From Bugula neritina (Eukaryota > Animalia > Bryozoa), in NCBI GenBank assembly GCA_964035545.1, contig OZ037770.1, forward strand, positions 8,066,973-8,130,972: a stretch of 64,000 nucleotides of DNA, written 5' to 3'. Of this stretch, positions 18,815 to 33,212 are shown piece after piece (the stretch's first letter is position 1; each line of letters begins with the position of its first letter). A model generated the notes under the pieces. The model saw only the letters and a program-made list of their open reading frames with translations. It did no database searches and was not told where the DNA came from. The position numbers and the translations under genes were made by a program.

Positions 18815-21800
18815 CTACACTTTATCAGCATGTTGGTTGTTCTCATCATTTTCATACAGGTGAGTACAGGTTCTCTCTCCCTGTCCGTCTCTGGCAGAGG
18901 TCAAGGTTATTTCATCCGGACCTTCGTACTGAAAGGCTTGGTCCACGGCTCTGAACTCACCAACTACTGGTTGCTTGTCCACAGGAAATGACTGCTTGAG
19001 GTCTAAGGGAGGGTCTGCACGGAAAGGCTGCTCGTACTCGGCTAGCAAGTCCACAAGATCTGGTCCCATGTACTCCGCAGGCAAACTCGTTGGTCCTCCA
19101 TCCAGAGAGTTGGAGTCCATAAGCTGGTCATCATACTCAGGTTCATTCTCTGGTGCCGGTGAGCTGTTAGCAGTGAGCCTTTCATACTGGTGTTGAGGAG
19201 TGGAACCATGTGGTTTCTCATAAACCAAAGAAGGAATGATGTCAGGTATCTGTTCATACAAGTGATCAGCTACGGCGAGAAACCCATTCTCCGTCACTTC
19301 CTTTACACAGTCATGGATGTATCTGTACTGCTCCTGTATTCATTAATTACAACAAACAAATTTGCACATGGTATAGTGACTGATGAAAACAAGAATTATG
19401 CTTTGTATATCACATTTATTAAATAATAATCATAAGTTAGGGAATCATAAGGAGTTCGAAAGTGCCCTTGGTAATTGCTGCATGTATGCCATTGATAGAA
19501 TCACTTAAACTGAATTGAAAAAGCAAACGTTTGGCAACGGATTTTGCAGCTATAACAAAAATTTTAAAATTGAAACTCAAAATTTAAAAATAGAAAAATA
19601 TTAACACTCTATTCTCTTTACATAATAACAAGTTTTAAGAGATATCTCAACATTTTAGAAAATTTCAACAAAAGCTCATGCGTTCTGAAATGATTTAAAC
19701 TCATTGAACGGTCAAAATATAACTTGGTTTATTTTTTTTAGGAAGATGACCATGAATACAGAAACAAACACATGATAAGTTTCTGTCTTATGAGCTACTC
19801 TTCAACAGTAACGTTTGAGTTATTTTAACTAGCGGTAGATCTTCTCAACACAATATTCAAATGCGTCTCGATTTCCACTTTTAAAACTATGGTTCAGCTG
19901 TGTGTTAATGATAAACCAGATATCTAACCTCTGTCTGAACCATTTTACACCGGTATTCTCTCATCTCCATCACCAGGTTGAATATGTCTATCTCACCATG
20001 GTCTTGAATACGTTGGAGAAGTCTATCAACAGCTATGTACGTGCCAGTACAACCAACACCAGCACTGTCAAACATTGTATACACCAGATCAATAGAGAAC
20101 TGTCTAGAAGCATTAAAACATCTGCAGTGTAACGGTATAGCACATAGAGTGTTACCTGCAATGTACGAGGATAGGAGAAAAACTTCCATCTAACATTTGA
20201 CTTCTCACTGCCGCCACAAACTCTAGCAAAGCCTGTGGTTTTGATGGACATCCAAAGCTGAGCGAGAATGCTGAAGAAATGTGTTTGATAGTCCGTATTG
20301 TTTCACCCTGGAAGTAGAAAAACTGCAGACATCACGTTTGATAAGGACCAATAAAATTGTTCCTTCATTTATATGTAGTTTCACAGCATTTGATAATAAG
20401 TGCTAGCCAACAACTTATAACACTGGATTATCCGTTTGATGAGCATGCTGAATTCGACAACATACACAGACCAAACACCATTGCGTGTGGGTTATAGCTT
20501 AAAACATTACCATGTATTGATATATGTAAACATGTCTCTATAAAAACTGCATAGGTCAAATGCATATAGTATTGTAATGGGGCGTGGAAAATACGTCCCA
20601 CGTGCCCTCTACCAATCAGACACTCTTATTTATTATTTCCGGCTGTGTTAAGCCACGCGGGTCGCAAACAGGCTGAATTCATATTAAGACTAGCAGTGAT
20701 GTGATACAGTAATAGTAAACGGTGATACATGATATATTTTTCCTTGGATTATATTTAATATAATAAAGACTCTAATAAATATTACCAGTGAATTATTGTC
20801 GACTTGACACACTAACTAGACTTACTAGAAGACCCACGCAACTATTGTGCGTCGCACAACAGTGGTGGCAGCGGTGGGAGACGATGAAAAGACTAGAAAC
20901 ATGACAGAGCATACAACACAACACCCAGAAGGTGAGCCAGACAATTTCGTACATATGGAAGAGGTGTGTAGAGATAAACTGAACGCTCCCACTTTCACGG
21001 GTGTAGAAGATGTGGAGCAATTCATTGAAGAATTCCACGGAGTATTAGATGTCGCTCAGTGGCCACCGCGAGTAGCCCTCGTCAAACTGCGGGAGGTATT
21101 GACAAAGCGAGCTAGACTGTTCGGACAGGGACGGAGCATAGCGGAGATATTCACTGCGCTGCGGAACCGTTTTGGCACCTCCGCTCTGGAAGCTAGAGCC
21201 TGTCTACAAGTGCTACGCCGGAAGGAAGACACACCACTCCGCGACCACGCTACCCTAATGAAGAGACTGGCACGGAGCGCGTACAGCGACCTGCCAGAAA
21301 CACGCCGTCAGAACTATACTCTTATTGACTTTATGCAGTCTCTCAATAATGTGGTTCTCTACCATCAACTACAGGCGAAAGGAGTGATCACCCTAGAAGG
21401 GGCCTTGCAAGTCGGAGAAGACTACCTTCGGGCCAAGCGGCTGTATACGAAGGAAACCGAAGGTACACGAGTCACCGCGGAGGCTGCCCAGTCACTTGGA
21501 GATGAGATGGGCCGGCTGAGCACCATGTTGAAACAAGTGGCGAAGACCCTCACCAACGTCGAGCCCTCCAACCGAGGACCCAGAAGAGAGACCTCGAAGG
21601 TAGCTACCCTGTGTGGAAAATGCAGCGAGCCGGGACATCTCCGCTCGAGGTGCCCCCAGTCCAAAAGAAGGCCCCACTTCCGCCAACCGCGGAAGCCTCC
21701 AAGACCCCGCGGGCCGGGAAAGGAGCAATCACGGGGCGGATACTGCCGGGCTCCCGAACAGACTCCGCAGGACACCCCCGTGAGTGGCAGGTATCAGGAC

Positions 21801-30800: not shown

Positions 30801-33212
30801 ATTGTGCGTCGCACAACAGTATGCAGGTCAGAATAGGAGAACTTACCGTTTGAATATCAAATATGCTGATGGTATAATCTGGAAGAACAGATTCAGCTCT
30901 CTTAGTTACAACTACGTCACCATATGCTGCAGGTTCCTCTAGGGTGTCTGGCCAGTACTGTTCACACTGCTTTCTTCCTGAAACATTATCAATTGTTAGC
31001 AATTTACCTCTCGCTATAAGTTGATATACTTACCTCTCTCTATAAGTTAATATACTTACCTCTCCCTATAAATTAATATACTTACCTCTCTCTATAAGTT
31101 AACATACTTACCTTTTTTTATAAGTTGATGAACTTACCTCTTTCTATAAGTTAATATACTTACCTCTCTCTATAAGTTAATATACTTGCCTCTCTCTATA
31201 AGTTAATATACTTACCTCTCTCTATAAGTTAATATACTTACCTCTCTTTATAAGTTAATATACTTACCTCTCTCTATAAGTTAATATACTTACCTCTCTC
31301 TATAAGTTAATATATTTACCTCTCTCTATAAGTTAATATACTTACATCTCTCTATAAGTTAGCATACTTACCTCTTTCTATAAGTTAATATACTTATCTC
31401 TATCTATAAGTTAATATACTTACCTCTCTCTATAAGTTAATATACTTACCTCTCTTTACAAGTTAACATATTTACCTCTCTCTATATGTTAATTTACTCA
31501 CCTTTCTCTATAAGTTAATATACTTACCTCACTCTATAAGTGAATATACTTACCTCTCTCTATAAGTTGAGTCAACATAACTATCATGGTGATATTCTGT
31601 TCCCAAATCATTCTCCAGAAATGGTCAATAGTTCCTGGTAGAGGTCCCTGAGTAGCAATGTATGTTTCTGTTGAGGCTTTACCCTATCATAAATATAAAC
31701 AATTACAGAGTCTCAATATTCTGGGATTACAATTAAGGGGCCTGTGTATAAAGTGCACAATTGAATAAGTAAAATAATCAAAACTTTTATACCTGTATGA
31801 TGTCCAGATAATTACTAATTACGTAAGTATAATTCTATGTTAACAATTTAATTAAGAATTGTTTGAAATTCAGAATTACATGCATGGCTATTAAACATGC
31901 CAACACCAGAAGAAACTCATAATATCTCACAGGAATGAAGTTAGCATTGATGTAGTCTCCCTCTTCCTTATTAGATGTTAGTTTCACTCTGGAGTGATCA
32001 ACTAGAAACATGAGCAAATGCGGAGAGTATTTCTTACTAGTTGTGCTACACATATAATTCCTGCTATATAGAAACTATCATGTAACATTAACATGCAAAT
32101 TTGTGGTATATAAATTGTACTGGGGCTTATCTTTGATATTTTCGTGTATATAAAAAGCGAACTATGAAACTATGTTGGTACATCAGAAGCCCCTTACTAT
32201 TTGTACAAATTCTCTTTTCCAAATGTCTTAGCATGTAGTAACAAGTATACCATATCTAACTTTATTAATATCATTCACTCGAAAGAAGACACCTGATTGG
32301 TTACCTTACAGACTAATCAGTTATATGCTCCTCTTTGACATTTAATAAAACATCATTTTATTCTGCACATGAAACACTTTGTCCTAATTTTCACTCAGTG
32401 AAACTTAATTGCAAAACGTTATCTCTGTTTCCAGAGAGAAAGCCTATGCAACAGCAAATACTAGATTCTTCTAGTACAGGCAAACACATCGTTGTTAAAA
32501 CTGAATATTTCTAACCCCACACTGTGCTATATGTAGTTAATCATAAATTTTTCACAAAAGTGTATAATCTAAACAGAAACTCTCTGCTGAAAAACTGCAA
32601 AACACACTTTTATATTCTAATTTCATAGTTTGTGTATTAAACTCAAAACAAGTGCGTTTATTTATAGGGGAGTTTCAAGTTATTTTGAAAACTAGCCTTG
32701 CTGTAAACTTATGCTCTTGTATCCCTGAACACTAAGAATTCTTACTAATCATGGCAAAATGACATCTTTTGAATGTTATTAATGACTAACAAGGCAGAAT
32801 GTACAGAGTTCTGTTCTTCATCTTATTTTCTGGTAGAGAGCCTACATCACAGCTGTAGTTGGCACATTTCTCATCTATTTCCTGTATAGATATAATAATA
32901 TTCTACTTTTATTAGAACATGGCAGGTATATATTTTTGGAATACTGATGAACACAACACAATAACATATTATATATATAAATAAAATCTAAAAAATATGT
33001 TGTATAACGTAATAATATACTTTAGCTAAATAAAATAATATAACTATACAAATAGGCAGAATGAGATGCAAGCTTCGTTTTCAGTTTAATAAATTACTTG
33101 AAATTCTCTAGAAATCCTTGCGCTAGTTTCCTCATTGAATTCCAATTCTTCATGTATTTCTGTCAACTCTGTACTTGTTCTTAGTTGATCAGCCAAATCC
33201 TTCCTTTCTTTC
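18815..33212 (-). CDS. Cytoplasmic part: PTP domain exons and Tyr-rich C-terminal tail
   Basis: Motifs [67 protein letters not shown] across exons with PTP-like intron positions. Confidence 0.92.

Follow-up and report, generated by a model that had tools for sequence, protein, structure and literature searches.

Receptor protein tyrosine phosphatases (PTPs) of the R3 type, among them PTPRB (VE-PTP), PTPRJ, PTPRO, PTPRH and Drosophila PTP10D, combine FN3 repeats, a PTP_tm region, one transmembrane (TM) helix and one PTP domain with YxN at the C-terminus, an R3 motif (PMC5336234; here and below papers are cited for the accessible part of their text). In catalysis the P-loop Arg of the CX5R signature stabilises the phospho-intermediate and the Asp of the WPD loop is the general acid (PMC9464862, PMC7320164, PMC2638020). 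Dead receptor PTP domains with altered phosphotyrosine (pTyr) and WPD loops are already known, and so are R3 members without the Asp: PTPRU D1 and the D2 pseudophosphatase domains of receptor PTPs combine an intact fold with a degenerate pTyr loop and WPD Asp (PMC7320164, PMC2638020), while in PTPRQ and divergent deuterostome R3 receptors (Ciona WPQ and WSV, acorn worm WPI) the WPD Asp is replaced (PMC5336234). Here we analyse an R3-type receptor PTP gene on the minus strand of a 64,000-nt stretch of the bryozoan Bugula neritina (GCA_964035545.1, contig OZ037770.1, positions 8,066,973-8,130,972, forward strand), which is referred to as the window. The account that we favour, with confidence somewhat better than even, is that the gene belongs to a multi-copy Bugula R3 family which has lost the WPD Asp and the pTyr-loop Tyr, and whose members are likely pseudophosphatases that dock partners via a Tyr-rich tail.

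Active-site losses in two layers

A first-pass annotation, made from the sequence alone, had described the gene as a receptor PTP with three independent catalytic substitutions, and the three motif changes are indeed present on the minus strand. The pTyr loop reads KNRTLY, with Thr at 32809-32807 and a Tyr replacing Asn at 32803-32801. The WPD loop, within [14 protein letters not shown], has S-L-S at 20265-20257 where paralogs have W-P-S. The P-loop signature [10 protein letters not shown] spans a phase-2 intron, and in the exon peptide [11 protein letters not shown] the Arg codon has become a Cys codon (TGT at 20051-20049), at a site where a spliced paralog contig has CGT. Two extra family-level changes, N48>Y and K120>Q in PTP1B numbering (the latter at 30969-30967), had been overlooked, as had a private R>S at 30867-30865 in a column that is 94% conserved. 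Conservation was counted in 263 active-type PTP domains (51 single and 212 D1; a redundant, LAR-rich set in which mis-split tandem proteins make up about 10 of the 'single' rows). All 263 have the WPD Trp, 252 the Pro and 252 the Asp, 261 the CX5R Arg, 242 the Asn that follows KNRYx and 244 the equivalent of Lys120, so the motif changes lie far from chance variation.

Set against an active classical PTP, the window copy keeps the P-loop Cys and lacks the CX5R Arg, the WPD acid and the KNRY aromatic residue; it retains 51 of the 59 invariant PTP columns and the Q-loop glutamines. Inspection by eye gave no support to a compensated frameshift within the WPD loop. The functional reading also draws on general background about how strongly Arg mutants are affected and about Trp-Arg packing; a literature search returned nothing direct on Arg or Trp mutants. 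That the PTP domain of the window copy, without Asp, Trp, Pro and Arg, is catalytically dead, as the annotation had proposed, is a well-supported prediction from sequence, and a family-wide loss of catalysis, with neither the Asp nor the pTyr-loop aromatic residue in place, is likely.

The history of these changes emerges from the paralogs. A search with the last exon gave one match among 333 candidates, a Bugula neritina protein with 86% identity, and five B. neritina relatives (P0001, P0002, P0003, P0007 and P0124) are 83-88% identical to the window model. Outside Bugula no library protein exceeds about 52% identity in the PTP domain, only B. neritina rows lying above that value; as far as the searched libraries reach, the family appears to be Bugula-restricted and multi-copy. 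P0007 and P0124 are recorded with contigs of equal length (89,203), which suggests a tandem cluster. The annotated WPD exon of P0007 is out of frame after TIRTI, so that this copy is either broken or mis-assembled, and it was left out of the domain alignment; P0124 ends at the TM exon.

KNRT, together with the Asn>Tyr change two residues on, is common to P0002 and P0007, Lys120>Gln to P0001, P0002 and P0007, and the WPD Asp>Ser to P0001-P0003 (FWPSS; HCSAGVGRTG); the strand preceding the WPD loop is also remodelled at the family level. The nearest R3 outgroup rows read KNRYTN, GRRKC and KWPDFG, and the family's N>Y, K>Q and D>S all fall in invariant columns. GVGRTG is retained in P0001, P0002, P0003 and P0007, the Arg thus standing in all four paralog proteins that cover the site. 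Confined to the window copy are W>S, P>L, R>C (CGT>TGT) and the R>S noted above. Since KNRT and the Asp loss are present in the paralogs, two of the three annotated changes count as inherited, which leaves one private transition, CGT>TGT; the substitutions can no longer be called independent, and the losses appear to have come in two layers, first in the family and then in the copy. The alignment to paralogues that the annotation had recommended thus confirms KNRT and the loss of the Asp as traits of the relatives, but these keep Trp-Pro and the CX5R Arg.

Sequencing-run contigs agree with this division. In all four runs (4, 1, 1 and 1 contigs) the whole depth over 20264 and 20261 carries the W and P letters, and an RNA-like contig of a relative joins the WPD exon to SAGVGRT with CGT, reading WPS and Arg. 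The transcript check that had been suggested is in this way answered for a relative, but not for the window copy, whose letters no such contig carries. The two RNA-like runs (X8 and X9) hardly differ in their output and could represent a single data set, and their RNA status is a guess. The 40 contig differences considered, out of 237, do not include position 20051. The 20 exonic differences that could be classified comprise 14 nonsynonymous and 6 synonymous ones, a sample too small and too selected for a ratio of nonsynonymous to synonymous rates (dN/dS).

Membership of the R3 type

PF18861 (PTP_tm) scores 34.3 bits against a cut-off of 26.3 on P0002, an 88%-identical paralog with fn3, PTP_tm above cut-off and one Y_phosphatase match, and the window exons are 82-90% identical over the PTP_tm region. 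The window gene shows the full arrangement of FN3 repeats, PTP_tm, a single TM helix, a single PTP domain and a tail ending in YxN; its protein has one PF00102 stretch only, in agreement with the single domain annotated earlier, and the terminal motif (HLYEND) recurs in all three paralog tails. Among single-domain solved structures the best by sequence is PTPRB (264 bits). It also ranks top by fold (ranks 1-14, rmsd about 2.1), a comparison that used the partial domain in a model of the paralog P0001 and not the window copy's own domain. A quick tree was drawn for 96 of 487 domains (41 single, 30 D1, 22 D2 and 3 Bugula). In it the three Bugula rows form a clade with support of 100 and a stem of 0.52 changes per site, placed among single-domain R3 rows with enclosing supports of 81-96; 7 of the 10 single-domain rows scanned have a PTP_tm match, 6 of them above cut-off. 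An origin from a D2 domain was rejected, as the Bugula clade stands apart from the D2 rows and the domain is single rather than tandem distal. By its sequence features the gene is an R3 receptor PTP.

A tyrosine-rich tail and a proposed docking role

The C-terminal tails of the family are 152-159 aa long, 20-22% acidic and contain 7-8 Tyr, with 159 aa and 8 Tyr in the window copy; those of 41 clean single-domain homologs measure 14-51 aa. Four YxxP motifs, YEQI and the terminal YEND make up the window set, and no canonical ITIM (tyrosine-based inhibitory motif of immunoreceptors) or hemITAM (the hemi form of their tyrosine-based activation motif) was found in this tail. YxxP accounts for 4 of the 7-8 tail Tyr (binomial P 0.003-0.005 against Pro content). 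Seven of the eight Tyr are also found in paralogs and are kept in all four tails compared, the copies being close. The tail of P0001 is predicted to be disordered, with a model confidence (pLDDT) below 50 for nearly all of residues 191-322. Crk- and Nck-type SH2 domains prefer YxxP and that of Grb2 prefers YxN.

On these grounds the following sequence of events can be proposed. Catalysis would have been lost in the ancestor of the family, on its stem, and with no catalysis left to protect the dead active site would have drifted, with R>C, W>S and P>L arising in the window copy and, in the same loop, G>R in two paralogs. Selection would meanwhile have maintained the frame, the core of the fold and the tail tyrosines. 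In the present-day receptor the FN3 ectodomain would bind a ligand and cluster the receptors, a tyrosine kinase would phosphorylate the disordered tail, and SH2 adaptors would dock on YxxP and YEND, while the dead domain would serve as a spacer, binding surface or scaffold that no longer removes phosphate. Paralogs with an intact CX5R and without the Asp could still hold phosphate-bearing ligands, which the window copy could not.

The ectodomain, in R3 receptors one of FN3 only with a signal peptide, may here not be built of FN3 alone. About 285 aa of non-FN3 sequence lie in frame upstream, and the joined upstream exons have no stop in 544 codons; the 5' end of the gene lies outside the exons found, its start being further upstream or beyond the window. 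A Pfam scan of this region (54416-56384) gave no hit, and it offers a weak NHL/propeller-like lead (feature score 0.95-0.97, recognition below threshold, with NHL for 13% of one cluster and 100% of another). The first 442 aa of P0124 have no matching exons in the window, where this weakly NHL-like region stands. Conversely, the ~285-aa region is absent from the annotated P0124, an observation that suggests ectodomain swapping among copies. A fast-changing, copy-specific ectodomain would fit a family of recognition receptors. A bolder proposal is that an inhibitory R3 receptor became an expanded, fast-evolving, dead, activating family in which ectodomains have been exchanged (one paralog having FN3 alone, the window copy a propeller-like part and duplicated FN3) and a multi-Tyr tail serves for docking, engaged in self/non-self or microbe recognition and evolving by birth and death; we regard it as speculative and improbable.

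Selection, decay and competing explanations

The annotation had also reported an intact reading frame and intact splice sites. Both hold for the catalytic part of the gene: the frame is open within 19929..32881, and the 14 exons from 36030 to the stop at 18815 have GT-AG introns throughout and encode 756 aa in a single open frame. Upstream the picture is different. Exon 37286-36277, the second copy of exon 45063-44940, is split by an 879-bp insertion with terminal inverted repeats (TIRs), located 11-15 nt before its donor. The arms (36289-36306 and 37156-37173) are 89% complementary, and the element has an internal 190-bp tandem duplication. Its ends suggest a piggyBac-like element; piggyBac targets TTAA, rarely CTAA or TTAG, and excises cleanly (PMC3064801). 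Translation running on into it meets an in-frame stop (37142) ahead of the TM helix, and the insertion would yield a truncated product prone to nonsense-mediated decay unless the frame were rescued. Two frame-keeping bypasses are predicted on paper, by a phase-1 cryptic donor at 37207 (1328 codons) or by skipping the two-exon module (1249 codons). Where the paralog proteins would place the acceptor of the exon at 34791 the sequence reads AA; an in-frame AG follows 9 nt downstream, and by this comparison the acceptor appears to be lost. The window copy may thus be newly disabled by a transposon, and whether it is functional at present is about evenly balanced.

It is not an old pseudogene, since besides the insertion there are no stops and no frameshifts across 3,981 coding nt. 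Between the internal duplicates 981 aligned intron columns contain 176 substitutions and 19 non-triplet indels, while the 600 duplicated coding bases contain no stop or frameshift against 15.6 expected at intron divergence. In the comparison with the paralogs a neutral branch would have accumulated 10-29 lesions, of which none was found besides the insertion, and this caps the neutral part of the branch at 0.10-0.29 (95% upper bound); the expectation takes the non-coding divergence of about 10% seen in 7 of the 9 pieces listed (two have 1-2%) and assumes 5% on the window branch. These figures support the retention of the gene under selection for most of its history. As the absence of nonsense and frameshift lesions makes the neutral period short, the four hits in invariant columns are not expected from decay, and a relaxed active site, its loops free throughout, is preferred over decay after pseudogenisation by a rough likelihood ratio of 31-216. 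The earlier suggestion that a dead domain has been retained accordingly stands for most of the gene's past but perhaps not for its present state, since this copy may now be disabled.

Several observations weigh against the view of a selected family of dead docking receptors. The likelihood ratio is post hoc and assumes a lineage divergence of 3-7% and a frame-keeping gene model at a locus chosen for these very traits. Private hits in the four active-site loops (3 of 4, P 0.11) and all eight hits together (P 0.10) are not significantly enriched. The window lineage evolves no faster than its paralogs (polarised changes 7 vs 7 and 7 vs 5). Its polarised private changes fall in invariant columns more often than those of the paralogs (4/7 vs 1/12, Fisher P 0.04), which fits recent decay as well. 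The internal two-FN3 duplicates have a dN/dS of 0.88 over 200 codons, indistinguishable from 1 (P 0.66), and decay is also what the insertion and the shifted acceptor indicate. The paralog proteins all stem from one species and are 93-99% alike, so they do not count as independent witnesses. The window copy's letters are absent from the transcript-like contigs (the two near-identical runs guessed to be RNA), and its WPD-loop letters from all four runs. Finally, PTPs with variant motifs such as PTPRQ can keep or change their activity (PMC7320164, PMC2638020).

The alternative that survives best, although we consider it unlikely, is that the window copy is a young pseudogene in which Arg>Cys, WP>SL and R>S arose as neutral decay after the insertion or after a loss of expression. 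In its favour are the stop at 37142, the shifted acceptor and a gene span of which about 62% (some 23.5 of 37.6 kb) is mobile DNA, as well as the excess of private changes at invariant columns. Four hits in about 21 differences match random placement (4.4 expected), CGT>TGT is a common type of mutation, and no contig of the four runs has the copy's WPD-loop letters. The lack of any nonsense or frameshift change in the 3,981 nt, however, leaves too brief a neutral period for four invariant hits.

Rather less probable is a family that is alive with changed or lowered specificity, as a PTPRQ-like lipid phosphatase or a CX5R pTyr trap, with the window copy alone fully dead. The paralogs retain the Cys, Arg, Glu115, Gln262 and Gln266 equivalents, and PTPRQ, which belongs to the R3 group and has an altered WPD loop, acts on phosphoinositides (PMC7320164, PMC2638020, PMC5336234). 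Against this, Ser, in contrast to the Glu found in PTPRQ, cannot act as a general acid, the WPD loop varies freely among the paralogs (G>R in two of three, F>S in all three), and residues of the pTyr pocket have changed too.

That the private changes are errors in the source assembly is very improbable. They are absent from every WPD-loop contig of the four runs, and three of them lie within 11 nt, but they are substitutions with no frameshift in 3,981 coding nt, the long terminal repeat (LTR) pairs in the window are 98.6-99.7% identical, and the introns also differ by about 8-12% from all long pieces compared, as those of a distinct paralog would. The redox module proposed in the annotation finds no support and has the least to recommend it: two cysteines now flank the P-loop, as a selected CX5C switch would have it, and the dead receptor PTPRU can be redox sensitive (PMC7320164), but the Arg>Cys change is a single common CpG-type transition private to one copy, and the Cys is absent from all four paralog proteins and the spliced contig. 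We retain the docking family of likely pseudophosphatases as the better-supported account.

Gene organisation and mobile DNA

The exons and the larger repeats are collected in Table 1. The exon model is backed by transcript-like contigs of a relative, which join the last intron (19332 to 19928) in the two runs guessed to be RNA and whose loose ends match the neighbouring exons on either side of the WPD exon. The LTR element in the intron before that exon, which had been overlooked, has LTRs identical at 284 of 288 positions (98.6%) and remnants of reverse transcriptase, RNase H and protease; the TIR element nested in it is one that we take, from its ends, to be Tc1/mariner-like. Within the tandem array at 31004-31568 the first donor alone keeps the frame, each downstream one adding a stop or a frameshift.

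Just downstream of the gene lies a very young LTR retroelement (2128-9587; LTRs identical at 303 of 304 positions, an 898-aa pol-like open reading frame), with relatives at 46144-52870 and 56641-64000. Two long minisatellite arrays (12752-13326 and 14389-15444) are also downstream, and fragmented reverse-transcriptase-like reading frames, LINE-like by eye, occupy 84-1927 on the minus strand.

Table 1. Exons of the receptor PTP gene and associated repeats (window coordinates)
Feature	Position	Strand	Remark or basis
Upstream coding exons, ~285 aa	56384-55826, 54967-54840, 54586-54416	-	in frame with FN3 exons
First two-FN3 module	53582-53425, 45063-44940, 44633-44452, 44356-44203	-	exon model
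Internal duplicate, two-FN3 module	37945-37788, 37286-36277 (interrupted), 36030-35846, 35750-35597	-	frame kept
PTP_tm juxtamembrane region and TM helix	35330-35145, 34791-34665, 34314-34210, 34099-33929	-	paralog/exon comparison
Juxtamembrane exons and pTyr loop KNRTLY	32791..33212	-	motif exon 32881-32791
PTP exons	32001-31931, 31683-31554, 30977-30847	-	exon model
WPD-loop exon, ending in HC of P-loop	20307-20156	-	exon model
P-loop/Q-loop exon	20064-19929	-	TGT at 20051-20049
Last exon, coding for the final part of the PTP domain and the acidic tail of 159 aa	19333-18815	-	stop at 18815
Non-coding TIR element in FN3 exon, 879 bp	36292..37170		CCC...GGG ends, CTAA/TTAA flanks
LTR retroelement, antisense, filling nearly all of the 10.5-kb intron before the WPD exon	20573..30818	+	GTAT target duplication
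TIR element nested in the intronic LTR element	~21998-24567		TA-flanked, AT-rich; 29-nt arms 86%, sub-terminal arms 84 nt
Two LTR-element remnants in gene introns	~38244-43870, 46144-52870		repeat comparison
Tandem array, 26-bp unit x 21.7 copies, unit containing exon end and GTAAGT donor	31004..31568		repeat analysis

Comparison with known systems

Few receptors have a dead PTP domain as their sole one, and the known R3 members without the WPD Asp are also without tail tyrosines. If the proposed reading is true, the Bugula family would offer a natural example of conversion from an eraser to a docking receptor, in which catalysis was lost while the tail tyrosines multiplied, and the graded series from WPS with Arg in the paralogs to SLS with Cys in the window copy could be assayed directly. 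The single locus also cautions that active-site changes stacked in a multi-copy gene can represent inherited loss plus drift. Among the papers listed in a literature search none was on Bugula PTP genes.

One likeness is with Botryllus FcoR and the Tyr-motif receptors of colonial invertebrates, which are likewise multi-copy receptors with Tyr-motif tails in a colonial animal (PMC12582321). It is a likeness without homology, a link to allorecognition would be speculative, and the Bugula tail is without the canonical ITIM or hemITAM. PTPRU D1 and the D2 domains resemble the Bugula domain in the motifs that have degenerated, but the latter, of R3 origin, is the only PTP domain of its protein and belongs to a multi-copy family restricted to its lineage instead of one with deep conservation, and its inactivity is predicted from sequence. 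PTPRQ and the divergent deuterostome R3 receptors share the replacement of the WPD Asp; these are described, in the accessible text, as being without tail Tyr motifs (PMC5336234), whereas the Bugula family has expanded them, and the Bugula residue is Ser, not the Glu of PTPRQ, with the Bugula clade apart from the WPE rows in the quick tree. With the canonical R3 phosphatases the family has the FN3 repeats, PTP_tm, the one TM helix, the one PTP domain and the C-terminal YxN in common, yet it differs from them in KNRT, in WPS or SLS, in the missing Arg of the window copy, in its several near-identical copies, and in a tail that has 7-8 Tyr and measures 152-159 aa, against 14-51 aa.

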